IMG/VR virus record: IMGVR_UViG_3300049004_000112
Span: 1 to 57,019 of that record
Origin: a virus
Taxonomy: Duplodnaviria; Caudoviricetes
DNA: 57,019 nucleotides
Strand: one strand, 5' to 3'
Made by a program: the position numbers and the translations under genes. How positions within the stretch are numbered: the first letter of the stretch is position 1; every line of letters begins with the position of its first letter. The notes beneath the pieces were generated by a model. The model searched no databases. It was not told the origin of the DNA and saw only the letters and a program-made list of their open reading frames with translations. Of the stretch, positions 1,623 through 52,476 are shown one piece after another.

Positions 1623-1991
1623 TCACGCCATACTCCCCGGCATGAAGCAGCGGATAGTGATGCCTTCGAAACTCTGCAGCGTGCCGTTGGAACTGAACGT
1701 GCCGCGCATCGGCCAAACCATCGTCCGGCCGGCGCGGTTCGGCTCGGTGATCACCGCATCGTCCGGGACGTCGATCCACTCGCCTTCGAGGCGCACCTGG
1801 TATTTCCCGTCACGGGTCCGCCAGTCGACGTCTGCGAGCGCCGTGCCGTCGGCATCCGAGCAGCATGGACCGTTCTTGCTTTTCAGGGAATCAAACCACG
1901 GCTTCAGCGGGGATCCTGCGTAGCGGCCGTCGAGATCGCGGGCATGAGCGAGGCTGCAGAACAACGCCAAGCTGAGAGCAAGCCATTTCAT
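1623..1991 (-). CDS. Secreted Cys-containing hypothetical protein
   Basis: Signal peptide MKWLALSLALFCSLAHA; PCCSDADG and IRCFMPG; ATGA overlap with the upstream small ORF. Confidence 0.7.
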   Translation of the reverse strand: MKWLALSLALFCSLAHARDLDGRYAGSPLKPWFDSLKSKNGPCCSDADGTALADVDWRTRDGKYQVRLEGEWIDVPDDAVITEPNRAGRTMVWPMRGTFSSNGTLQSFEGITIRCFMPGSMA

Positions 1992-2104
1992 CGGCGTTTT
2001 TCCTTGTGCCATTTCCACCATTCGGAGACGCCGGCCGCGACCGCGAGGATCGCAACCACGATCAGGAACGCGGTCAGCCATTGCAGCCAATGAGCGAAGG
2101 TCAA
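1988..2104 (-). CDS. 38-aa single-TM protein (not in ORF track)
   Basis: MTFAHWLQWLTAFLIVVAILAVAAGVSEWWKWHKEKRR; TTG start overlaps the upstream TGA and its stop overlaps the downstream ATG. Confidence 0.65.
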   Translation of the reverse strand: MTFAHWLQWLTAFLIVVAILAVAAGVSEWWKWHKEKRR

Positions 2105-2855: not shown

Positions 2856-4073
2856 TCAAGTGACTTTCGGGGTGGATGGTTCGGCTAAAGGGCTTTGTAC
2901 GAACTCCCAGTCGACGAGCCCTTTGCCGTCGATCTGCAGGGCCTTGGCGGCGGCGAACGTAAGGTCGATGCCGGCGCGGTTGGTGTTGCGTCCCCTCATG
3001 TCGGTGCCGGTTTCGGCTTGCGGACGCGATCCGGTCTGCCAATAAGGGTCGTGGGTATTCCACGGTCCGACGTCGACAATGTCGCAGACGATCGATTGAC
3101 CGGATCGTTTGGCCGTGACGCGAACCTTCGGCCGCTCGCCCGTAAAGTGGAACGGCAGCGCCACGCCGTTCGCGTTGTCATCGATCGCGCCGCCATAGGC
3201 AGAGCCTTGCCCGCCGAACATGGTTGCGACGATGTCCGTCTGCCGGCCGGTCGCGATCGGCGGCGCAGGTCCTGCGATGGCCGCTATGGCGGGCGGCGTC
3301 TGGAGGTGTGCCGGGGATCCTGCCGGCATCTGGACCGGACCGATCGCGGGTAGCGGCATCGACTTCGGCCACCAATAACCGATCAGGCCGAACGTGGCGC
3401 TCGACTTCGGCAGCGCCTCGATCTGCACCATGTCGCTTTCGTTGCCGCCGAGCGTCCAGACATGCGCGTCATCTTCGCCGCGGTAGCAGCCGACGTGGCC
3501 AAGACCGGAATCCTTTGAGCCGCGCCAGAAAACGGCGATGGCACCGAGCGCCGGGCCGGGTAGTTGCACGAACTCCGGATGATGGCGGAAAGACTGCGAG
3601 GAGGCGCTGCGCGTGCCCGGAATGCCTGAGGCCTCCAAGGCTGCATTGACGAAGATCGCGCACCACGGGTCGCCCAAATCCCCGCAATGGCCCAATCCGA
3701 TGTAGCGCTCGATGCCCTGGTTGTTGCCGGTCTCATGGAAACCGATCTCGTGCAGCGCCCACTGAAACCACGGCGGCACGCCGCTCGAAGAAGATGCAGG
3801 CTTTGCGAGCGCCGGAGCCTCCGGATGCTTTGGCAGCGATGGCAGCGGAAACAAGGCCGGCAGCTTGACCGGAACGCCAGCTGAAGCCGGCTGCAACGGA
3901 AGCGGCAAGGGCGAGAGAGTTTCGATCGGCCTTGGCCCGGCCTGTCCCAACAATTGCGCCAGGAGCTTCACGGTCTCGTGCTGCGACGACAGCGAGCGCC
4001 ACAACAGCGCGGCCATCCCGACAAACACGATCAGCATCGCAAGCCACGGTACGGCGGCGAAAAAGTCGCTCAT
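2856..4073 (-). CDS. Endolysin: N-terminal TM + TIGR02594/CHAP-NlpC-like domain + RlpA/DPBB-like domain
   Basis: PWCAIFVNAAL...GHVG...LGGN (Cys/His peptidase motif); VDVGPWN...AGIDLT (DPBB-like). Confidence 0.8.
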   Translation of the reverse strand: MSDFFAAVPWLAMLIVFVGMAALLWRSLSSQHETVKLLAQLLGQAGPRPIETLSPLPLPLQPASAGVPVKLPALFPLPSLPKHPEAPALAKPASSSSGVPPWFQWALHEIGFHETGNNQGIERYIGLGHCGDLGDPWCAIFVNAALEASGIPGTRSASSQSFRHHPEFVQLPGPALGAIAVFWRGSKDSGLGHVGCYRGEDDAHVWTLGGNESDMVQIEALPKSSATFGLIGYWWPKSMPLPAIGPVQMPAGSPAHLQTPPAIAAIAGPAPPIATGRQTDIVATMFGGQGSAYGGAIDDNANGVALPFHFTGERPKVRVTAKRSGQSIVCDIVDVGPWNTHDPYWQTGSRPQAETGTDMRGRNTNRAGIDLTFAAAKALQIDGKGLVDWEFVQSPLAEPSTPKVT

Positions 4074-4126: not shown

Positions 4127-4147
4127 AAAAAGCCGCCCGGAGGCGGC
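4127..4147 (-). terminator. Intrinsic terminator upstream of the lysis cassette
   Basis: Minus strand GCCGCC-TCCG-GGCGGC-TTTTT. Confidence 0.7.
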
Positions 4148-4224: not shown

Positions 4225-4410
4225 ATGGACAAGGACAGGCCGGAAAGCGACCCCCCGAAACCAACCGCGCTAAGCCCATCGCTCGAAAAAATCCTAAACG
4301 AGGATCGGATCGGACTTGCTCAAGAACAACGCAAGAGGCTTCGCCTCATGACAGTTTACATCTCTATCGAATTCGATCGGGGCAAGGCGCCGAAGTGGCG
4401 GGACAAGTGA
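4225..4410 (+). CDS. Small hypothetical protein (moron)
   Basis: 61 aa, opposite orientation to the late operon; coupled to the next ORF. Confidence 0.4.
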   Translation: MDKDRPESDPPKPTALSPSLEKILNEDRIGLAQEQRKRLRLMTVYISIEFDRGKAPKWRDK

Positions 4411-4628
4411 TGAACGCGTTGCGGGCCATCATCAATTTTATTGCGGGACAAAAACGCGATGGCGCCTGGCACCACTACTCGCCATATTTTCGGCGATCAG
4501 GAATGCCGGAGCCTCACCCGCATGCCGGGCTGATGCGTCGCTGGCACAATGGCGCTTGGGAATATCGCGCTCTGACAGATGATGAATTGGCCGAAGAAGC
4601 GGAGCGCCAGATCGAGTCGGTGCTGTGA
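4407..4628 (+). CDS. Small hypothetical protein (moron)
   Basis: GTGA overlap with the previous stop; LMRRWHNGAWEYRALT motif. Confidence 0.55.
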   Translation: MMNALRAIINFIAGQKRDGAWHHYSPYFRRSGMPEPHPHAGLMRRWHNGAWEYRALTDDELAEEAERQIESVL

Positions 4629-4674: not shown

Positions 4675-6162
4675 CTAGTTCGCCGACATCAAAATCCAAT
4701 TGGTGCCGTCGGATTGCAGACCGGCCCATTTTCCCGCCGTTGCCGTGAGTAGTGCGGTGCCAGCAGCACCCCCAGCGAGCGGGACGACATTCGATGACGC
4801 GCTGTTCACGGTCTGCGCAGCAATTGATTTTAGATTCAGCCATCGGCCCGGATAAGTCGCAGCTGTCGGCAGCGTAAGGGTGAAAGTACCCGAGGCGTTT
4901 ACGATAATCGAGCTATCCGACACGCCGACGCTGCCCGACGTGCCTGTGAGCGTGACAGGGATAGCGGTGGCAACTGCACCGCCGACACCAAGGTTCTTGA
5001 TCCCAGGATCAGTAATTCCGACGCCAATTGTGACACCGCCGCTTGGCTGCCAGCGCATGCTTTCCGCAAGCGTCGTAGAGCCAGCCGGAACGGTTCTTAT
5101 TCTGACGAAGCCGCCATGATCCGATACGGTCTGCGCATTGGCAGTAGCAAAATCGAGAGTAGCAATCGAAGCATAGGCCGTTCCATCCCATGCTTGGGCA
5201 CCGATTGACTGAATAAACGCTGCCGCATTGACAGACGATTTGCTTGTTGCCGTCCCGTAACTGAGTCGCGCCGTGACGACATTTTGAAACCCCGAACCGA
5301 AGGCGTCCATAGCGAATCCAGCAAACGCATTGTCAGCGCCTACGGCATGGACTTGCACAGCCGTATTGGGCGCAACGGTCGCAACCGTGTTTGCGTTCGC
5401 CGTGACAAGAGCGTCGGGGGTGACAGCAGCTCCAACGTTCACCGACGTATTGGCTTGCAGCGTAGTGTGGGTCCCAGCAAGCGGCGTGGTTGCGCCGATC
5501 ACGACGTTGTTGATCTGGTTGCCGCCGCCGCTGACCGTGCCGCTGAGGGTGAACGCGTTAATCGTGGTTGCCGCCAGCGTCGGGACTGTGAGGGTTCCGG
5601 TAAAAGCTGGGCTTGCGATGTTCGCCTTGAGCGCGGCGATTGCGTCGGCGTACGCAGTGGTCGCAAGCTGAGTGGTATTCGTCCCCGGTGTTGCCGTCGG
5701 CGCCGTAGGCGTTCCGGTGAGCGCCGGCGAGATAGAAAATACAGCCACGCCCGTGCCGGTTTCATCTGACAGGACGCCAGCCAGTTGCGCCGATGTAGTC
5801 GCGGCAAATGCCGACAGGTTGTTCGAAGTGTAGGCGACGGTCCCGCCGCCCCCGAACGTCACCGTCGAACCATCGGTCGCGGTGAAGGTCACCGTGTTGT
5901 TGACGGTCAGCGTCTTGCCCGCCAGCAGCGTCAGCGTCGCCAGCGAAGCCGGGTTGGTGAGTGCGACATTGCTGCAGCCCGGCTGCGCAGCGCCACCGAT
6001 AATGGCGCGCGGCGATGGGCAGTTTGCCGCCAGCATGTCGATCAGCGATGGTCTTGTGGTCAGCGGCGCCTGCGCGTGTGCAAGCGCAGCCGACAGCAGC
6101 AGCGCTATCGAAGTAGCGAGTGACCTCATCAATAATGTCGTCATCTTGGCTCCCGTCGTCAT
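4675..6162 (-). CDS. Tail fibre-like protein with N-terminal signal-like peptide
   Basis: Thr/Ala/Gly-rich; SPALTGTPTAPT...TQLATTAY fibre repeat; C-terminal TLTLP...SDGTNW module. Confidence 0.75.
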   Translation of the reverse strand: MTTGAKMTTLLMRSLATSIALLLSAALAHAQAPLTTRPSLIDMLAANCPSPRAIIGGAAQPGCSNVALTNPASLATLTLLAGKTLTVNNTVTFTATDGSTVTFGGGGTVAYTSNNLSAFAATTSAQLAGVLSDETGTGVAVFSISPALTGTPTAPTATPGTNTTQLATTAYADAIAALKANIASPAFTGTLTVPTLAATTINAFTLSGTVSGGGNQINNVVIGATTPLAGTHTTLQANTSVNVGAAVTPDALVTANANTVATVAPNTAVQVHAVGADNAFAGFAMDAFGSGFQNVVTARLSYGTATSKSSVNAAAFIQSIGAQAWDGTAYASIATLDFATANAQTVSDHGGFVRIRTVPAGSTTLAESMRWQPSGGVTIGVGITDPGIKNLGVGGAVATAIPVTLTGTSGSVGVSDSSIIVNASGTFTLTLPTAATYPGRWLNLKSIAAQTVNSASSNVVPLAGGAAGTALLTATAGKWAGLQSDGTNWILMSAN

Positions 6163-6443
6163 TTGTGGCCCGCCTGCAGCGCCTCGTTACGCTTGACTTC
6201 CGCTTCCCACCCGATTTTCGCCGCCGCGCATTCGCCGGAATCAAACGTCGTCGGATCAATCCTGGCGCGGCGGGTGCACAGGATCATGGCGGCGCGGGCG
6301 GCGTCCTGCGCAACCGCTTCGGGGCTGCGCTCGCGCAGAAACACGTCCGGCATCGGACGAATGATTGGACGAACGATAACTTCCGGCGTCTGCGCAACGG
6401 CGGGAGACACCAGCAGCAGTAAGAGCAATGCGCGCATTCTCAT
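6159..6443 (-). CDS. Small secreted protein in the fibre cluster
   Basis: MRMRALLLLLLVSPAVAQ signal peptide; stop overlaps the next start. Confidence 0.6.
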   Translation of the reverse strand: MRMRALLLLLLVSPAVAQTPEVIVRPIIRPMPDVFLRERSPEAVAQDAARAAMILCTRRARIDPTTFDSGECAAAKIGWEAEVKRNEALQAGHK

Positions 6444-6448
6444 TTCCG

Positions 6449-9382
6449 TCAGTTGGAGGGGCAGTTGGCGTACAGCGCCAGCGTTGAAGCAGTTCCGAAC
6501 GCCGGCACAGAGCTCGGGTTGCTCGCTCTGAACATCGACCAATTGGTCGTTCCTGTGATGCCGAATCCAGCGATGGTTTGGGACGTTCCACCATCTATTC
6601 CAAAAATAGAGCACGAAGCGGAAAACGCGAACGGCGCGCCGCTTAAGGCCGTAGCGCCGGTCGCCGTCACGGTCCCGAACGCCGTGGAGACCCAATACTC
6701 GGTGTTGTTGCCGTGCTTCTTGTAGAAGCCTTGATTCGTCGTCGTCGGCAGCGAACCTCCTCCAGGAGTCCACACTGGCGTCCACGTTGGCAGTGGCAGC
6801 AGCGCCCCGCCCGGGAATGTGTTCGGCGTAATGTTATCGGCAGTGGCGTTGAAGCACCCGGTGCCGGTGACCCACGTAAAGGAGAAGGAGGCGGTGAGCG
6901 TCTCGAACCGCATACCACTGGGGCTGGAGGTGCAATTAAAGATGCCGCCAGTGAGAGTTTCGTAGTGGCTACCTGACCAACTATAGGCGGTGCCGCCAAC
7001 CAGTGTGTATGCGGTGGTGTTGACAAAGTTTCCGCCGCCGATCTGATCCCCATCGGAGGTGAATCCGTTTGCGGTGAGCGTATACCAGGTGCCGCCACCT
7101 CCGCTGGGCGCTATGATGTCTCCATGCCAGTTGCCAGTCGAGACCATCGCCTTGCATGGCCGAGAAGCGTCATTGGAAAACAGACCAGCGCGGCCATTTA
7201 CGTCCGCCTCGAACGCGTTGCTGAGAAATATCCAGCTCTCTCCGCAATCAATGATCGCAGGGCCGGTATATGCAGCGAACTGTGATTCCGTGATCTTAAC
7301 ATTGACGTTTAATCCAAGAATATTTTGCCCTTTGAGGGCCGGTCCGCACCGCCCGAAGTTGACGCGCTTGATGATGATCTCGCTGATCTCTGGCATATTG
7401 ACGCAGGTCGGCGGCGTGGCGACATAAGTGGCGCTAATCGTTGCGTTCTCGATCAGTATTTGAGAGCCGCCGACGGAAGTGCCGGGAATCGTCGCGCCAA
7501 AATCGACCAGCGTTCCAGTAAACCCCGAATTGGTTGCAAGGATCGGCACGCCGGTGATGGTGGCTGCAATACCGTCGCGCCAATCAATGGCCCGTCCGGT
7601 GCCGCTGCCGGTGAACTTGAGCGCTGAGGGCGTGCCGCTGCCGGGGCCATAACCCCCCTGTCCGCGCAGCACCAGGTTGGGATGTCCCTTGAAGTCCAGT
7701 GTGGTCAGGAAGGCGCAGGTGCCGGGGATATCAATATAGCCGCCATTGCCCGGCGTCGCATTGATGGCCGCCTGGATCGCGGCCGAATCATCAGTCGATC
7801 CATCGCACACCGCATTATACGGCGCCGCCGTCACCGGGTTGTAGAGGAACGCCGAAATTCCCACAGACAGGTTTTGTCCCGAGGTCGAGACCGTCGCGCC
7901 GCGGACTCCGAGGAGGTTCAGCGCGCCGCTCGCGCCATTGAGGTTGCCGACGCCAGCCGTGGTGGACGGCGCGTACCAGTGCGCTTCGACCACCTGCGTA
8001 TTGGATGGAATTGCGGCGTTGAACGTGACGACCGCGCCCGCCAGTGACCAGGTATTGTGCGACTGGATGACGCCGTCGAAGGTGATCGCGAGCAGCGCCG
8101 CCGCCGAAGGCGAGTTCATCAGCGTGATCGACGTGCTGGTTCCGGCCGTGAAGCCTGTGCCGGCAAGGAAGTCCTGCACATAAGGCGTGTTGGCGTTGGC
8201 GCCGCAGCTTGCGCCGGCGTCGACCACGTTCAGATCGGCGTCGAATTTGACGCAATCGTTCGGCGTCAGCGCGCCGGCGGTGGTGACGTATTTGGTGGTG
8301 TTGCCGGACCGCGTGCCCTGGGTGAGCGCACTCGTGCCGTTGCCGATCAAGGGCAGGTTGGCGGTGAACGACGTTGCCCCGGTGCCACCGGCCGATACCG
8401 GGACGGTGCCCAGCGCGAGCACTCCGCCGGCGAACGACAGCGGCGAGGTGACACTCAACTGCCCGGCGCCAAGAGTCCCAACCAGATCGGCAAAACTCGG
8501 CTGCGAGCAAGCCGGCAGGCCTGCCGTCGAGATCGTATTGATCCAGTTGCTGCTGCTGCAGGTCAGCGAGCGCACGCCGCCGATCGCGCCTGCGGACGAA
8601 GGCTGCAGATTGAGACTGCCTCCGCTGCTGGCAAGCCCGGTACCGATGTTTTGTGTCGCTACGTTGCCGAGACCAAGGTTGGTGCGCGCGGTCGCGGCGC
8701 TCGCGACGTCGGAAAGATTGTTGGGCCCGAGCAACGCGGTGCCGGTATTGAGCGTCGGGCGCCAGATCGTGTTGGGTGCATCATAGACATACTGGATGGC
8801 GCGGCCCGGGCCGACAATGCCGGTGCCGCCGATGGTTGTGCCGGCGCCGGCGCTGATGGTGTCGCTCGCGGTCGCATCGACATTGGTGACGACGATCTTG
8901 CTGCCGTTGACCATGCCCGTGGTGCCTGCGGCCGGAAACGTATCGGTCATCGCCGAGCCGGAATTGGAGCGCCGGGTTTCCTTGAACAGGTCGGCGGTCG
9001 CATACGTCTTGCTGGCGCCGGTCACGGTCTGGATCGGCAGCAGCGCCTCCAGCGTCCCGGTGCCGGGGTTGGCGACCGAGGCCCCGGCCGTGCTCACCGG
9101 GGCGCCGGAGGCCGTAACGCAATATCCCGCCGCCCAGCTGGTGCCGTTGTCGACCAGGCAGCGGCCGTTGGTGCCGGGCGCAATGAAGCCGACGGGATCG
9201 GTGCCGTTGCCGAAGATCAGGTTGTTCTGCGGCAGCGTCGTGCGCCCGGTTGCGCCACGCGACACCGGCTGCGCGCCGGATCCGGCGAAGCCGCCCTGCG
9301 CCAGCGCCGGAATCGCGAGCCCAGCCGAGAGCGCCGCGCCGAGCAGGGCGCGGGAAAGGTATTTTGCCAATGTCATGATCAC
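6449..9382 (-). CDS. Tail fibre/tailspike with pectate-lyase-like beta-helix (putative depolymerase)
   Basis: YNAVCDGSTDDSAAIQAAIN...YIDIPG beta-helix start motif; NNLSDVASAATARTNLGLG fibre repeat. Confidence 0.8.
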   Translation of the reverse strand: MIMTLAKYLSRALLGAALSAGLAIPALAQGGFAGSGAQPVSRGATGRTTLPQNNLIFGNGTDPVGFIAPGTNGRCLVDNGTSWAAGYCVTASGAPVSTAGASVANPGTGTLEALLPIQTVTGASKTYATADLFKETRRSNSGSAMTDTFPAAGTTGMVNGSKIVVTNVDATASDTISAGAGTTIGGTGIVGPGRAIQYVYDAPNTIWRPTLNTGTALLGPNNLSDVASAATARTNLGLGNVATQNIGTGLASSGGSLNLQPSSAGAIGGVRSLTCSSSNWINTISTAGLPACSQPSFADLVGTLGAGQLSVTSPLSFAGGVLALGTVPVSAGGTGATSFTANLPLIGNGTSALTQGTRSGNTTKYVTTAGALTPNDCVKFDADLNVVDAGASCGANANTPYVQDFLAGTGFTAGTSTSITLMNSPSAAALLAITFDGVIQSHNTWSLAGAVVTFNAAIPSNTQVVEAHWYAPSTTAGVGNLNGASGALNLLGVRGATVSTSGQNLSVGISAFLYNPVTAAPYNAVCDGSTDDSAAIQAAINATPGNGGYIDIPGTCAFLTTLDFKGHPNLVLRGQGGYGPGSGTPSALKFTGSGTGRAIDWRDGIAATITGVPILATNSGFTGTLVDFGATIPGTSVGGSQILIENATISATYVATPPTCVNMPEISEIIIKRVNFGRCGPALKGQNILGLNVNVKITESQFAAYTGPAIIDCGESWIFLSNAFEADVNGRAGLFSNDASRPCKAMVSTGNWHGDIIAPSGGGGTWYTLTANGFTSDGDQIGGGNFVNTTAYTLVGGTAYSWSGSHYETLTGGIFNCTSSPSGMRFETLTASFSFTWVTGTGCFNATADNITPNTFPGGALLPLPTWTPVWTPGGGSLPTTTNQGFYKKHGNNTEYWVSTAFGTVTATGATALSGAPFAFSASCSIFGIDGGTSQTIAGFGITGTTNWSMFRASNPSSVPAFGTASTLALYANCPSN

Positions 9383-9954
9383 ACCAGTTCGTAGCCTTCG
9401 CCGGTCACATTGCCGGCGTCGTCGCGAATTTTGCGGAAACTCAACGCCATGTTGTCGACGTCGATCTTGACCGACGGATTGCCGTCGATGGTCTCGGCGC
9501 CTTGCGCCGCGACCGTGATATTGAAGGTTCCGGCGCCGGCGCCGTTGGCCAGCATGCGGTCCTTGATGGTGACGAATTCCGGAACGAGGTTTGTCGATAG
9601 CGGCAGATTGATCCGGAACGCCGCCGGCACGGTCTTTTTGGCGATAACCAAGCCAATATCATCCGCCAACGTCACATCGCCGGCCGCAGTCAGCGTCAGC
9701 CGCTGCGGCCGGCCGAGATCATCGAGGAATTCCGTGGTCGCAAGCCTCTTCGAGCGATCGCCCCGCGGCGGCGTCGGCGCGGTAGGCTCGTTGAGAAATT
9801 CCGGACTGTCGATCGGTGCGGCTCCGACGACCTCATGGGCACCATCGCCGTTCCAGTTCGATGGAACGAGTTCGCCGGCGGCGGCCGCTTCCTCGCTGTC
9901 TTCCAGCAACGAAACGAAGCTGTGCCTGACGATGACCGTGCCCGGAATTGTCAT
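9379..9954 (-). CDS. Tail fibre-associated protein
   Basis: SPEF..PTAPTP...LATTEF fibre repeat plus INLP...TIKD...ETIDG module. Confidence 0.7.
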   Translation of the reverse strand: MTIPGTVIVRHSFVSLLEDSEEAAAAGELVPSNWNGDGAHEVVGAAPIDSPEFLNEPTAPTPPRGDRSKRLATTEFLDDLGRPQRLTLTAAGDVTLADDIGLVIAKKTVPAAFRINLPLSTNLVPEFVTIKDRMLANGAGAGTFNITVAAQGAETIDGNPSVKIDVDNMALSFRKIRDDAGNVTGEGYELV

Positions 9955-9975
9955 GACTGTTTGCCGTTCCGATTT

Positions 9976-10872
9976 TCAGAACTTGATCGCGCGGCGGACC
10001 AGCGATATCGGATTGAGGATCGGATGCGCCTGCCCGCCGGTATTGCTGGAGGTGCCCGTGGCTGTCACAAAAGGAAGCGTGCCGGTCCCGGGCTGCACGC
10101 CGTCCACCGAGCCCCCCGCGCCGGCGCCGACCGTGATCACCACGCCGCCGCTGCGCAAAAAATGGTCCGCTGACGTGGTGCTGACCGAAATGCTCGGCAG
10201 CTGCAGCGCGGTCAGGGTCGCGCTTTGCGAACCGCAATTTCCGATCGCGGTCGCGTCACAGCCGCTACCAGCCGACGTGACGACATTGGCGGCGCCCCCG
10301 GCGCCCTGGTTATCGAGCGCGACAAGGGAGCGGCCTTTTGAGTTCGGCAGGCCGAATGTCGTCGTGCCATCGCAGGCGCCGTAGTTGGTGCCTATCACCG
10401 AAAACAACGGCGCAAAGGTTGCGCGCGACACGCAGCTGCCATCCTCGATCAGCGTGCCCCGTAGCGTGGCGCTGCCGCGATATTCCACCGTTCTGCCGAT
10501 CGGCGTCATGTCGACCGGACCCAGAATTTCGATGGTCGAGCCGTTGTACATCACCGTCATGGTGACGCCGGCCTGCAACTCGCCGCCGGAAAGTGCCACC
10601 AGACCGATATTGGACGGCCGCCGCGCCGCGGTCGCGGTCAGGTTGTTGATCGAGATCGTCGCCGGTCCGGTATTATCGAGCGGCGGGACATAGCGCAGCG
10701 GCACGCCCAGCACGTCGTTGAGGCTCTGCACGTTGGCAATCGAGATGGTCTGCGCATTGGCAGTGCCACCGCCGGCGCCACCCCAGGTGCTCTGCGCCTC
10801 GAAGGCGACGGCCGGCGCGGACAGAGCAAGCAGCACACATCCCAACGCCAGTAGTTTTCGGAGGATCATCAT
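9976..10872 (-). CDS. Tail fibre protein with phage tail collar domain
   Basis: PIG...DGSCVSRATFAPLFSVIGTNYGACDGTTTFGLPNSKGR collar motif; C-terminal GQAHPILNP..V..IK. Confidence 0.85.
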   Translation of the reverse strand: MMILRKLLALGCVLLALSAPAVAFEAQSTWGGAGGGTANAQTISIANVQSLNDVLGVPLRYVPPLDNTGPATISINNLTATAARRPSNIGLVALSGGELQAGVTMTVMYNGSTIEILGPVDMTPIGRTVEYRGSATLRGTLIEDGSCVSRATFAPLFSVIGTNYGACDGTTTFGLPNSKGRSLVALDNQGAGGAANVVTSAGSGCDATAIGNCGSQSATLTALQLPSISVSTTSADHFLRSGGVVITVGAGAGGSVDGVQPGTGTLPFVTATGTSSNTGGQAHPILNPISLVRRAIKF

Positions 10873-11744
10873 GTCGAGCGGCTCCATATCCGGGTGACGC
10901 CATTGTCGTAGAGACGGAAAATCGTCTCCTGAAAGTTGCGGTTCATGACGTAGTTCGCGGCGCCCGCGATAGTTTCGCCGACGCCGAGCGGTGTCACCGT
11001 GGCAGGGTAAGGCTGCAGATTGCCGGCCACGTCCGATACGACGAACTCCTTGCCGTTCTTGGCGCCCGGTGGAAGCGTGATGGCTTGTGCCGCCGGCGCC
11101 GCGGTCCGCAACAGCGCGACCGAGCGCTGAATCAAGGTCAGATTGAGTGCCGCGCTCGAGGTGACGATGGTCGCCGCACTGGAGAATTCAGCCGGCATGT
11201 CGATCTGAAACGCCGCGCCGTCGTAATCCAGCTTCGCCATGCCGCCGCCGAGCAGATCCTTCTTCTGCAGGGGCGCGCCGCCCTTGCGAAGGATCGCCCT
11301 GGCGGCGAGACCGTTGACCGCGATGCTCGCCGCAGCGCCGGTTCCATCATGGGCAACCAGGACATTGATCGAAAGTCCGGCCTTGTATTCGGCCAGCGCC
11401 GGCGCAAGTGCCACCACCAGCGCATCGGCAGCGCCGGTATCGATGCCGAACTTCATCTGCCCACGCTGGATCAATTGCTGCACGGCTTGCAGCGCCATGG
11501 TGTCGTCGGCATTGTCTTCGGTGACGACGTTGGCCAGCGCCGCGGTCTGGCCGTTGCCGCGGATCAGCGCCCGCAATTGCCCCAGCAACCCGTTCATGAA
11601 ACCGGCCGTAATGCCGGTGCCGTCGCCCGCGCCAGGCGACGAACAGTCCTTGCCGTAGGTGTCGGCGCCGCCGAACACGCGGCTGTCGCCAGGCCGCGTG
11701 ATAACGACGTTCGGCGCGTTGGTGCCGTATCCAAGCAGATCCAT
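10869..11744 (-). CDS. Baseplate-anchoring tail fibre protein
   Basis: GTGITAGFMNG N-terminal anchor motif; directly follows the gp48-like gene. Confidence 0.75.
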   Translation of the reverse strand: MDLLGYGTNAPNVVITRPGDSRVFGGADTYGKDCSSPGAGDGTGITAGFMNGLLGQLRALIRGNGQTAALANVVTEDNADDTMALQAVQQLIQRGQMKFGIDTGAADALVVALAPALAEYKAGLSINVLVAHDGTGAAASIAVNGLAARAILRKGGAPLQKKDLLGGGMAKLDYDGAAFQIDMPAEFSSAATIVTSSAALNLTLIQRSVALLRTAAPAAQAITLPPGAKNGKEFVVSDVAGNLQPYPATVTPLGVGETIAGAANYVMNRNFQETIFRLYDNGVTRIWSRST

Positions 11745-11752
11745 GATTGACC

Positions 11753-12451
11753 TCAGGCAGTTCGATAGATGACGGCGACGTGGGCGTGCACGATGCGATC
11801 GAGCAGGCACACAAGCGGCGAGAAGTCCGGTTCGCAGTTCAGCGTGTTGCCGAGCTGGAACGCGCCGAGCAGCGGCTGGGTTTGCAGCACGCCCTGAAAC
11901 GCCGGGCTGCTCGCAAGGTCGACGACAATAAGGATCGTGGCGGCACCGCCCTCGCCTCCCAACCCCTCATTGCCAAGTTGAAACGTGCCGAGCTGGAAGC
12001 AGATCGCTGAGAACAGCGGCTCACAGACAATCGACCATCCCGCGCGCGCGGCTGTCTCCCCGTAATAGACGCAATCTGTGCCGCCGAGCGCGCCTACCTT
12101 GGCGCACAGGTCGGGAAAGGGATCGCAGGCATCGGGCAGGCCATATTCGGCAAGCCACAGCTCGCGGCTCTTTGTTTGCGTCGCGCACCAGAACTCCAGC
12201 CGCAGCGCGCACAATAGCTGCGTCAGTTGATAGAAGAAATCCGCGACCGCCGCCCAGAAGGCATGCATCAGGGTCAGCGGCCGGCCGAGCGTCTGAAACA
12301 TGCCGGCCTGCGCAAAGCCGGGCTGCGCCATGGTGACTGTATAGGCCTGCCCCACCGCATCGTTGCTCTGCCAGGCGTTGCCGCGCGGCAGCAGCAGCAG
12401 CAGCTGGCGAAAGATTTGCAGCTTGGTCGGACAGCGGAATTGCGCACTCAT
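11753..12451 (-). CDS. Baseplate protein, Mu gp48/DUF2313-like
   Basis: LLLLPRGNAW...WLAEYGLPD.C motif; position after baseplate J. Confidence 0.8.
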   Translation of the reverse strand: MSAQFRCPTKLQIFRQLLLLLPRGNAWQSNDAVGQAYTVTMAQPGFAQAGMFQTLGRPLTLMHAFWAAVADFFYQLTQLLCALRLEFWCATQTKSRELWLAEYGLPDACDPFPDLCAKVGALGGTDCVYYGETAARAGWSIVCEPLFSAICFQLGTFQLGNEGLGGEGGAATILIVVDLASSPAFQGVLQTQPLLGAFQLGNTLNCEPDFSPLVCLLDRIVHAHVAVIYRTA

Positions 12452-13575
12452 GTGAACGCTACATCTCCGGGCGTTGCGATCTGTCCGGACGTCAGCGGAA
12501 TGTCGGCGGCGGGCGCCAGCAGAATGTGCCGTTTCTGCCCGGCCGCATTGGAGATCGCCTGACCGATCCACTCCCGCGAAAACGATTGCGCGGTCGCCAG
12601 ATACGGCATGCCGTCGTGCTCGGTGTCATTGCCGGCCACCGCCGACAGCCGGCGGAACGCAGCGCCAATTTCGGCGATCACCGACTGCCGCACCGCCGTG
12701 TTATCCGGCGACAGGCTATTGATGGTCACAGGCACCGGCACCGCGATCGGCGCCGACACCGTGACCGCGGCGCCGGCCGGCGCCACCAGGTCGATATAAT
12801 CCTGCACCCTTGCGACGTCCGCGGGCGAGGGAATGCCGTCGGCGTAGCGACCGTCCATCAGCACGAACACCCGCACTGTGCCGGCGCCGATCCAGCGCCG
12901 CTCGACATAGACCCGGGTGACGCCGGAAACCGACGACGCCCACAGCACATAATCCGCCGGCGCGCCGCCATGCGGCGGGTTGCGCTTGCGAAACAGTATC
13001 CTGCCGCGGAAGGTCGACAGGTCGGAGGTGAACGGCTCGCCGTCGGCTTCGACGTCGTCGCCTGCAACGATGCCCTCACTACCTACCGCTGCCGTTGCAG
13101 CGCCCGTCACGCCGGAGACGACGGAAAGCGGCGTTGCTGCAATGGCATTGCCGGCCTTGCCATCCACCGAGGCTATGACATCGACGTCGACTGTGCCTGC
13201 GCCCGCAAGCGAGGTTGCTGCAGCGGCGAGGTAGCGAAAGCCGTCGCCGCGCGTGAACACCGCGCCGAGATCGACAGTGACCGCTGCCGGCACCGTCAGT
13301 GTCACCTTGCCTGAGGCCGGCGCCGCCGGCCGCTTGGTCAAACCGACTTCCGCGCCGTGCAAAACGAGATTGTCACCGTCGGCCGTCAGCGCGAATTTCT
13401 GCCGCGAGATATAGCTTGCGAAGCCCATGATCTCGGAACCGACGCCGGCCATCACCTTGGCCGCCACGGCCATATTGTTCGGCCATATCCATGCGTCGCT
13501 GCCTTTCAGATAAGCGCGCAGCGATTTGCGCGCCATATCCGCCAGCGCAGACAGGGTCGGAACGGCAAAACTCAT
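12448..13575 (-). CDS. Baseplate J / Mu gp47 family
   Basis: FRGRILFRKRNPPHGGAPADYVLWA..VSGV motif. Confidence 0.92.
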   Translation of the reverse strand: MSFAVPTLSALADMARKSLRAYLKGSDAWIWPNNMAVAAKVMAGVGSEIMGFASYISRQKFALTADGDNLVLHGAEVGLTKRPAAPASGKVTLTVPAAVTVDLGAVFTRGDGFRYLAAAATSLAGAGTVDVDVIASVDGKAGNAIAATPLSVVSGVTGAATAAVGSEGIVAGDDVEADGEPFTSDLSTFRGRILFRKRNPPHGGAPADYVLWASSVSGVTRVYVERRWIGAGTVRVFVLMDGRYADGIPSPADVARVQDYIDLVAPAGAAVTVSAPIAVPVPVTINSLSPDNTAVRQSVIAEIGAAFRRLSAVAGNDTEHDGMPYLATAQSFSREWIGQAISNAAGQKRHILLAPAADIPLTSGQIATPGDVAFT

Positions 13576-48390: not shown

Positions 48391-48666
48391 TCATGCAGCC
48401 TCGCGTTCAAGACGTGATGCGCCGGCCAAGATGGCGTTGATAAGATGCCAGCCGCTCGCAGATGGGCGATAGAACGCGCTTCGCACACTGCCTTCATCGG
48501 GAACAATTTGGCACCACATCTGAATCAGGCCGCGCCGCCACAGCGGCGTCATCGCTTCGCGCTGATCGCGGGTCAGCGTGACCTGTCCGCCATTGGCGCA
48601 GCAAATCGCGAGGTGCTTTAACGTCGCGATTTGCCGATTGGAGAGGCGCTGTTGCGTCACAGGCAC
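48391..48666 (-). CDS. Hypothetical protein (possible wHTH)
   Basis: LSNRQIATL...LWRRGLI; ends EREAA like neighbouring genes. Confidence 0.55.
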
Positions 48667-49376
48667 TCCCCGATGATTTCACGCTTCAGCGCGCCGACCT
48701 TGTCGTCATCGTCGGACTGAACTTCGCCGTGCAGTGCGACGATCCACCAACGCTCGCCTTTCCATTTCGGAGGGATGAACGTGGCGTGCAGCGCCTGGCG
48801 TGAGCAGATCCGCAGAGGGCCCGCGATTTCCTCGATGATCCCCGGCGCGACCGGCGGGTTCGTACCGCCATTGCATGCGCGGCCATTCTTGTCAGATCGC
48901 CAAAACGCGATAGTGGCGCCACTTTCTTCAAGCTCGCGAAGGCGAGATTGCAAAGTGTCTGGCCATTTCCGGGCGAAGCCCGGGATGGTGGCCAGCCAAT
49001 ATTGCTTGGAGCCGTAGCCGTAGCCGTAGCCGGAGCCGTAGCCGTAGCCGGCGCCGTAGCCGGCGCCGTAGCCGGAGCCGTAGCCGGAGCCGTAGCCGTA
49101 GCCGTAGCCGTAGCCGGCGCCGTAGCCGGCGCCGTAGCCGGAGCCGTAGCCGGAGCCGTAGCCGTAGCCGGCGCCGTAGCCGGCGCCGTAGCCGGAGCCG
49201 TAGCCGGAGCCGTAGCCGGAGCCGTAGCCGGCGCCGTAGCCGGAGCCGTAGCCGGCGCCGTAGCCGGAGCCGTAGCCGGCGCCGTAGCCGGCGCCGTAGC
49301 CGGAGCCGTAGCCGGAGCCTTTAAGAAATGAGTGCGGGACTTCGCCCCGCACAAGTTTTGCTTCGCTTACTTCCAT
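48657..49376 (-). CDS. Gly-Tyr repeat protein
   Basis: 104-residue ([10 protein letters not shown])n tract followed by a globular domain. Confidence 0.75.
49008..49319. repeat. Tandem 12-bp/6-bp repeat (GCCGTAGCCGG[A/C])
   Basis: Directly visible 312-bp tract. Confidence 0.97.
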
Positions 49377-51693: not shown

Positions 51694-52476
51694 TCAATCC
51701 AGCGGGCATTCCTTGGCGAGATCGGCGAAGGCCGCGCGTGCGCCAGATGTCTTGAAGATGCTGGTGCGGCTCACCCCTTGAGCATTTTCGATCCGGACCG
51801 CCGCTTCCCGGCCCTCCTGCATCGCCTTCACCGTCGATTTGTCAGTAACGACCTGAATCACGCGGTTGTCGATCGCAACGCCAGCCGTTTCCAAAACGGG
51901 CTCCAGGTCGACGCGGAACTTCAACTTGAATGCCTCTCCGGTCTGCAACGGCTTCTGGTCGGGACCGGCCTCGATCATCGCAATCGTCAGCTTTTTTTGA
52001 ATGCAGCGGACCGCCAGCGCAATGCCTTGGTCGAAAGCCACGGCGACAAAACTTCCGCCGTCTCCGAAACGGTCCCGCTTCGCGGAAACCATCCATCTGC
52101 CGATCATCCGGTCCTCATAGTCGGTCGGCCCCGGCGCGGCTTCCGCTCGCGCGGGTTGCTGCTGCGGTGCCGCGGGCTTGATAGCGGTTTCAGTGCGCGG
52201 GGTTTCGAGTGGTGCAGGCGGAGGCTTAGGCGCGGCCACGGGCGCGGGCTGGGTCGGCTTCGGCTGCGCTTGCTGGCGCAGCTTGCGATTGCGGCTGGCG
52301 GTGTCGGCATCGAGCACCTGACAATCCGTCATCATCGCGGGAAATTTGCCCGTCGCGCGGATTTCCCGGCCCTGCGGGCACTCATCCTCTCCGATGCGAT
52401 AGCCGCGTCGGGGATCCTGCGCCAAAGCGTTTGTTGCGGCGCACAGCAGGCCCGCCGCGATGACAAGTCGTTTCAT
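51694..52476 (-). CDS. Secreted/periplasmic moron protein
   Basis: Signal peptide MKRLVIAAGLLCAATNALA; Pro-rich linker; beta-rich C-terminal domain with paired Cys; GGGGGAGGG RBS. Confidence 0.75.
   Translation of the reverse strand: MKRLVIAAGLLCAATNALAQDPRRGYRIGEDECPQGREIRATGKFPAMMTDCQVLDADTASRNRKLRQQAQPKPTQPAPVAAPKPPPAPLETPRTETAIKPAAPQQQPARAEAAPGPTDYEDRMIGRWMVSAKRDRFGDGGSFVAVAFDQGIALAVRCIQKKLTIAMIEAGPDQKPLQTGEAFKLKFRVDLEPVLETAGVAIDNRVIQVVTDKSTVKAMQEGREAAVRIENAQGVSRTSIFKTSGARAAFADLAKECPLD

Follow-up and report, generated by a model that had tools for sequence, protein, structure and literature searches.

A tailed phage known from soil metagenomic DNA may assemble its particle from parts made in two cellular compartments. 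The sequence analyzed, hereafter the window, is the whole of IMG/VR virus record IMGVR_UViG_3300049004_000112 (57,019 nucleotides), and the system in question is a cluster of six tail fiber genes on its minus strand, four of whose products begin with a predicted signal for the Sec pathway. By the usual teaching, the particles of tailed phages are assembled entirely in the cytoplasm. We propose instead that the distal fiber parts of this phage are exported, folded with disulfide bonds and joined to the cytoplasmic tails at lysis, a reading to which we assign a probability of roughly 55%. Its first part, that the leader-bearing fibers are exported and carry disulfides, appears well supported by their sequences.

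The six genes lie downstream of a gp48-like baseplate gene, four with a Sec-type leader and two without. The anchor, a leaderless proximal fiber protein (10869-11744; 291 residues from MDLLGYG, the longest open reading frame (ORF) extending to 11810), contains one cysteine, matches PHROG tail protein families and ends in a conserved C-terminal knob domain (residues ~185-291). It is followed by a collar-domain tail fiber (9976-10872; 298 residues) made up of leader, N-domain (24-125), collar domain and a conserved C-terminal strand. Next come a leaderless fiber or adaptor protein of 191 residues (9379-9954), with PHROG tail fiber matches, a conserved N-terminal stretch of 80 residues and a variable C-terminal half, and a spike-like protein (6449-9376; 975 residues, or 977 from a GTG at 9382), with fiber modules in its N-half and a beta-helix-like C-half. 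A small protein without an assigned role (6159-6437; 92 residues, alternative start at 6443) precedes the last fiber, the final gene of the tail operon (4675-6144; 489 residues, longest ORF to 6162), which matches PHROG tail fiber and virion protein families. For the small protein no Pfam or PHROG match was found; of 69 candidates only one proved homologous, with 65% identity, and in it the leader and both cysteines are retained. The collar, small and last-fiber genes were overlooked by a crude GC3 gene caller and were placed by hand. The collar ATG at 10872 overlaps the anchor stop by four bases (ATGA), the spike GTG at 9382 likewise overlaps the stop of the 191-residue gene by four bases (GTGA), and a GGGAG ribosome-binding site precedes the last-fiber ATG at 6144; the overlaps and this site show that the leaders stand at the genuine N-termini of late tail genes that are coupled in translation. 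The database gene call P0001 begins at the same Met as the collar fiber.

The initial annotation had described basic-hydrophobic-AxA leaders at the start of four of these genes and their absence from 10869-11744 and 9379-9954. Both descriptions hold, and all four leaders stand at true N-termini. They read MMILRKLLALGCVLLALSAPAVA↓FEAQ in the collar fiber (10804-10872; 23 residues, of which 2-18 are modelled as a helix), (MI)MTLAKYLSRALLGAALSAGLAIPALA↓QGG in the spike-like protein (9299-9376; 26 residues), (MR)MRALLLLLLVSPAVA↓QTP in the small protein (6393-6437) and MTTLLMRSLATSIALLLSAALAHA↓QAP in the last fiber (6073-6144), with predicted signal peptidase I sites AVA↓F, ALA↓Q, AVA↓Q and AHA↓Q, respectively. 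By a rule of our own, each has the features of a Sec signal, namely a positive n-region, an uncharged h-region of ~7-15 residues and, past a helix-breaking c-region, small residues at -3 and -1. A twin-arginine (Tat) signal was rejected, RR being absent from all four leaders. A lipoprotein signal, sought as a lipobox ([LVI][ASTVI][GAS]C) at the end of the h-region, was rejected as well: the sole leader cysteine, in the collar sequence ALG-C12, has A at -3, lies six residues past the Lys and is not conserved. The collar leader of a related locus, L005 (about 5190-5270), contains the lipobox-like word LIGC, which is absent from the window protein.

When the rule was applied in its strict form, 4 of 54 provirus ORFs passed at their listed starts (a set that excludes the collar, small and last-fiber genes), and two of those four are plainly real leaders. 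It was passed by 82 of 105 collar fiber homologues and by 72 of 100 homologues of the spike N-half, counts to be read in the knowledge that the strict rule overlooks visible leaders with long n-regions (e.g. in L004 and L090) and that several of the failing homologues are of this kind. By these counts, leaders are more frequent in the homologues than chance would produce. Poor conservation had been named in advance as a reason to doubt the leaders; the leader of the collar fiber is conserved, both across its family, by the count just given, and in syntenic relatives. Across the 38 collar sequences of alignment A1 the -1 Ala (A23) is invariant, position -3 is occupied by A, V, S or T without exception, and the predicted cut is usually preceded by a stretch rich in Pro. 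Gln follows the cut directly in 39 of the 82 leader-bearing collar homologues and in 50 of the 72 spike homologues. The last fiber is matched by 8127 representatives at E<=0.001; among the best 150, 24 pass the leader rule and most are leaderless fibers.

In five spike homologues (P0130, P0157, P0158, P0167 and P0171) the module SSPNW.YG.VPT..QWN comes directly after AxA↓Q, and in P0145, which has 0 cysteines, the same module starts at Met1 (MASQSSPNW). Because the module occurs both with and without a leader, the leader looks like a removable addition, and the predicted cut would restore the usual N-terminus. In the collar homologue P0094 a leader stands ahead of a module that forms the leaderless N-terminus of a Bradyrhizobium phage protein, which suggests that leaders may have been acquired more than once.

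The mature proteins are also distinguished by their cysteines. There are 4 in the collar fiber, 16 in the spike-like protein and 2 each in the small protein and the last fiber, as against 1 and 0 in the leaderless proteins 10869-11744 and 9379-9954. The closely spaced cysteine pairs that had been reported in the large fiber genes are indeed found in the mature parts: 147/167 and 205/213 in the collar fiber; 73/86, 273/290, 375/391, 524/554, 658/677, 711/741, 815/841 and 922/972 as consecutive pairs in the spike, with spacings of 13-50 residues; and 41/56 in the last fiber, numbered in a 488-residue query that starts one codon past the Met (42/57 from the Met). The small protein has the pair 54/70. 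Even numbers of mature cysteines accompany the leader in three families: 77 of 82 leader-bearing collar homologues versus 12 of 22 others with any cysteine, 65 of 72 leader-bearing spike homologues versus 14 of 24 others, and, among the best 150 last-fiber representatives, 18 of 21 leader-bearing versus 39 of 90 others. Of 94 aligned collar-family sequences, 83 have both Cys147 and Cys167 and 9 have neither, leaving 2 in which the two are discordant; the partner of Cys213 is kept in the family, shifted by one or two columns. The pattern in these counts is the one expected of disulfide-bonded periplasmic proteins, with even cysteine numbers and pairs that are kept or lost jointly. It had further been claimed that two collar cysteines occupy positions that are normally not cysteine. 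Collar-domain ORFs from viral and metagenomic loci bear this out: of 85 such ORFs, 74 are leaderless and outside the family (one more, cut by a locus end, was dropped), and none of the 74 has a cysteine at either the Cys147 or the Cys167 position, where A, L, N, P, E, T or V and G, respectively, are found.

The collar and last-fiber genes encode real fiber proteins. The collar fiber, for which 105 homologues were found, scores 45.9 bits (E 5.5e-12) with the Pfam Collar family PF07484, whose cut-off is 24. Its AlphaFold2 model has a mean predicted local distance difference test (pLDDT) score of 72, exceeding 90 for residues 30-120, and the best Foldseek matches to that model are the tail fiber of cyanophage A-1(L) (8kec; E 6e-7), the Pa193 fiber and T4 gp12. 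For the C-half of the spike-like protein, Atlas comparison gave a feature score of 0.91 to PF12708 clusters and structural template modelling (TM) scores of 0.77/0.63 to clusters of the pectate-lyase-type beta-helix. The Pfam score to PF12708 was 16.6 bits, under the 27-bit threshold, and a PDB sequence search with the spike found no solved relative; for these reasons the label "spike" is a lead and not a statement of family membership.

Multi-segment tail fibers join end to end, as in T4 gp34-gp37. A corresponding joint was modelled between three copies of the anchor knob (residues 185-291, alignment A3) and three copies of the mature N-domain of the collar fiber (24-125, alignment A1). In each of three runs the complex reached an ipSAE of 0.93, the best of three controls giving 0.00, with a partner pLDDT of 94 and contacts that were 100% alike between runs. 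On calibration, the mark was reached by 58 of 80 solved complexes and by 2 of 110 mismatched pairs, figures that apply only roughly here, where our own alignments and three copies per chain were used. Collar residues 24-30 and 46-55 contact knob residues 241-247, 261-270 and 291; since residues 24-30 take part, the interface covers the first residue after the predicted cut, F24. The model thus places the N-terminus of a distal segment on the C-terminal end of a proximal one, for the collar fiber and the anchor, and supports binding of the mature collar N-domain to the anchor knob. For one of the four leader-bearing proteins it also gives a first support, from modelling, to attachment at or after lysis, which the initial annotation had proposed.

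Gene order was compared in three close proviruses (L003-L005) and six distant loci (L006, L007, L090, L094, L095 and L097), in some of which the hub and J proteins are 25-30% identical to those of the window. All nine have a knob-domain gene, then a leader-bearing collar gene and then a large variable gene, with exceptions at the last step in L006, where no large gene follows the collar gene, and in L094, whose sequence stops at the collar gene. The large gene has a classical leader in all seven loci whose sequence covers it (L003, L004, L005, L007, L090, L095 and L097), and the L005 counterpart of the spike has a leader and a mature N-terminus of the same type as in the window. A further locus, L093, also encodes a member of the collar family. 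In the close loci a leaderless gene of the 191-residue type lies between the collar gene and the large gene. Across four loci (alignment A2) the C-terminal half of this protein occurs in two types, which go with the type of mature N-terminus in the protein that follows: one is common to the window and L005, the other to L003 and L004. This co-variation would fit contact between the two proteins, and it would fit simple linkage too. A search for further related loci with alignment A2 found nothing beyond the three already known.

From the leaders, their conservation, the cysteine pattern and the gene order, all of which can be read from the DNA itself, we infer the following route for the fibers. 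Two kinds of part would be produced. The leaderless proximal proteins (10869-11744 and 9379-9954) would be made and mounted in the cytoplasm, and the distal receptor-binding parts (the collar fiber, the spike-like protein, its small partner and the last fiber) would be sent through the host Sec translocon. Signal peptidase I would remove their leaders at the four predicted sites, and the exported parts would fold and trimerize in the periplasm with disulfide bonds. They would reach the tails only when lysis merges the two compartments, whereupon the new N-terminus of the collar fiber would dock on the end knob of the proximal protein and the exported parts would enter the virion. The initial annotation had proposed export, periplasmic disulfide folding and attachment around lysis; the leader rules, their conservation and the pairing of cysteines strengthen that proposal in silico, while cleavage, the disulfides themselves, periplasmic folding and presence in the virion keep their conditional standing. 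A wider form of the proposal is more tentative, and we hold it at somewhat under even odds: that such a phage is assembled from two compartments, head, tail and proximal fiber stubs arising in the cytoplasm and all its distal receptor-binding parts being Sec-exported, trimmed, Dsb-oxidized and joined at lysis to leaderless knobs via their new N-termini, and that this design is lineage-wide in phages of soil proteobacteria.

Export need not imply incorporation. The leader-bearing proteins could act in the periplasm or outside the cell during the lytic cycle and never form part of the particle; in such a role they might keep progeny from being lost on debris, by destroying or masking receptors or by digesting surface polysaccharide, or they might aid exit. 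The alternative offered in the initial annotation, host-surface or soluble factors, may likewise apply to the spike, the small protein and the last fiber. The spike C-half, with its likeness to a pectate-lyase-type beta-helix depolymerase (below threshold in Pfam), would suit that role, the knob-ended leaderless proteins might suffice as fibers, and the docking result covers the collar fiber alone. Bacteria are also described, in the parts of the source drawn on here, as exporting tailspike-like enzymes, such as Pantoea WceF with its Tat signal (PMC7949094). We nevertheless judge this account unlikely: the collar N-domain is modelled on the knob of a tail protein with a score far above the controls, all the genes lie within the tail operon and are coupled to tail genes, and the large proteins swap their distal parts and keep their N-terminal modules, as virion receptor-binding proteins do. 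We consider it far less probable that a resident prophage expresses the proteins for lysogenic conversion, as exported adhesins or exclusion proteins. The element is a provirus, and exported moron proteins occur in the fiber regions of temperate phages (lambda lom), yet these genes are set off by no gap and have no promoter of their own. Four promoter-like sites occur in the region, where chance alone would give 2.2, and the only one on the coding strand lies inside the spike gene. The four-base overlaps with tail genes, and the same layout in every related tail module examined, also speak against lysogenic conversion.

Were the N-termini left uncleaved, they could anchor the fibers at the periplasmic face of the inner membrane, either until lysis or permanently. 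Many members of the collar family have hydrophobic stretches of 15-18 residues ahead of a PPP motif, which would be compatible with an anchor, as would the helix modelled for the leader. Such an anchor could do without a -3/-1 site, yet Ala is invariant at -1 and only small residues occur at -3; the h-regions in the window are short, at only ~11 residues; residue 24, directly past the site, takes part in the modelled interface; and the SSPNW module starts at Met1 in a leaderless relative. We regard anchoring as improbable on these grounds, and as a shade more improbable still the idea that the hydrophobic N-termini are not used at all, their leader-like appearance being structural or vestigial and the proteins folding and assembling in the cytoplasm. 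That is the textbook route, and every cultured relative examined is leaderless. Against it, the full n-, h- and c-region architecture with AxA is conserved over ~90 collar homologues and recurs in unrelated large proteins, even cysteine counts and paired gain or loss of cysteines accompany the leader, and no internal start near the leader would yield a leaderless form.

Several considerations weigh against export of the distal parts and their joining to tails at lysis. All evidence in the analysis is computational. The leader calls come from the self-written rule and not from SignalP, and a first, loose version of that rule passed 15 of the 54 provirus ORFs before the strict one replaced it. 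The cysteine statistics count related sequences and not independent events, and the leaderless gp48-like protein, with 12 cysteines, illustrates that cysteine richness alone is no mark of export. The docking model consists of cut domains without the leader, with the spike, the small protein and the last fiber outside its scope. The knob at the end of the leaderless proteins is of the kind also found in the last fiber, and these proteins could be complete short fibers in themselves; in L006 (9588-9968) the anchor knob is a separate ORF of 126 residues with a leader-like start, which is a misfit for a cytoplasmic adaptor. Among phage records, no match to the collar fiber reaches residues 1-54, so that the leader is uncovered, and a tblastn search of 50,697 phage records with the spike and the last fiber gave no match. 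The fiber-region proteins of Rhizobium phage vB_RleM_PPF1 and Microcystis phage vB_MweS-yong2 are leaderless and poor in cysteine (0-6, the 6 occurring in a 1038-residue protein). Finally, joining after lysis must beat dilution.

If the distal parts are indeed exported and joined at lysis, disulfide-stabilized fibers would be possible for phages of Gram-negative hosts, which would suit life in soil. The phage would depend on the Sec system, signal peptidase and Dsb system of its host, with infectivity hinging on this secretion and disulfide machinery, and cytoplasmic expression of such fibers for engineering or structural work would fail or give misfolded protein. Annotators and gene callers should then not take a leader as evidence against a virion role. 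The window offers a concrete, testable joint, that of collar residues 24-30 and 46-55 on residues 241-270 of the knob of a leaderless tail protein.

The window amounts to a complete temperate phage that has a contractile tail and a baseplate of Mu type. The record of 57 kb is a provirus according to IMG/VR and is rated complete by CheckV, and nearly all of its genes are on the minus strand. PHROG matches identify terminase, portal, major head protein, sheath, tube and tape measure genes, as well as two hub proteins and wedge proteins; this joint set of head, tail and baseplate genes therefore indicates a whole contractile-tailed phage and not a tailocin. The baseplate J protein (12448-13575) and the gp48-like protein (11753-12571, minus strand) were both assigned by PHROG match; the 12 cysteines of the latter might bind a metal or a cluster. 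The stretch was found solely in three soil metagenome DNA runs of one study, and two scans of genome contigs gave no usable relative. The tail operon ends at a terminator-like hairpin (4132-4147, minus strand; six G-C pairs followed by a T run); the interval from this hairpin to the last fiber gene contains two small ORFs on the plus strand (4225-4410 and 4395-4628).

A few other ORFs of the window were noted in passing. A 260-residue protein in the early or lysogeny region (51694-52476, minus strand), without a PHROG match, has a classical leader (ending NALA↓QDP) and is possibly an exported moron, judging from its sequence. At 1623-2090 (minus strand) an internal start gives a leader (MKWLALSLALFCSLAHA) and a CC motif; L004 and L005 have, at the matching place beside an HNH endonuclease gene, leader-bearing proteins with a CC-containing stretch that looks similar by eye. 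A 239-residue protein (48657-49376, minus strand) contains a long Gly-Tyr/Gly-Ser repeat (GSGYGAGYG…).

Literature searches found no description of exported tail fibers in tailed phages, and in papers on phiCbK and 7-7-1 the term "signal peptide" occurs only in the reference list. Cells are known to export fiber-like and spike-like proteins; none is known to belong to the tail operon of a tailed phage. The MAT fibers of Bdellovibrio bacteriovorus are tail-fiber-like trimers that, according to excerpts of the source, have a signal peptide, a conserved beta-rich domain, swappable tips and in some cases disulfides (PMC10769870). They differ from the window proteins in being cellular surface proteins of a predator, encoded outside any phage tail operon and forming no part of a virion. 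Pantoea stewartii WceF is described, again in excerpts, as a trimeric beta-helix protein that is exported and has a tailspike fold (PMC7949094); unlike the window spike, it has a Tat signal and is exported folded, is encoded by a chromosomal exopolysaccharide gene and lacks fiber modules. Use of host Sec by a late phage protein, together with a disulfide, is reported for the signal-anchor-release endolysin P1 Lyz in the portion of the paper used here (PMC3556154), and the Sec-dependent lysis proteins of phages are lysis enzymes, unlike the structural fiber parts considered here. Just downstream of the fiber operon, the window encodes a 405-residue protein (2856-4073, minus strand) that combines a membrane segment at its N-terminus with a lysozyme-like domain (phrog_1259), a candidate Sec-dependent endolysin of the signal-anchor type by its sequence features.

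Among phages with a Mu-type baseplate, the cultured PPF1 and yong2 are, respectively, 32% and 41% identical to the window over the full length of baseplate J and have the same baseplate gene order. The Collar domain of the window fiber is matched in 267 phage records and is shared with T4 gp12 and with WAX24428 of Bradyrhizobium phage ppBeUSDA76-2. WAX24428 also shares the domain before the collar; it has a leaderless start, and A and G where the window fiber has Cys147 and Cys167. In ppBeUSDA76-2 (L084, 6785-7765) the collar gene lies between two lysozyme genes. The closest structural parallel to the collar fiber model is gp34 of the Anabaena myophage A-1(L) (PDB 8KEC), a trimeric long tail fiber whose N-terminal domain likewise fixes the fiber to the tail. 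In the passages of its description considered here, the shoulder domain of gp34 spans Met1-Ile155 and binds the baseplate wedge directly, numbering from Met1 that suggests a protein without a cleaved leader, and a disulfide is mentioned nowhere in those passages (PMC10966104). The collar fiber of the window differs from gp34 in having a leader and two cysteine pairs, and in being modelled on a separate, leaderless protein.

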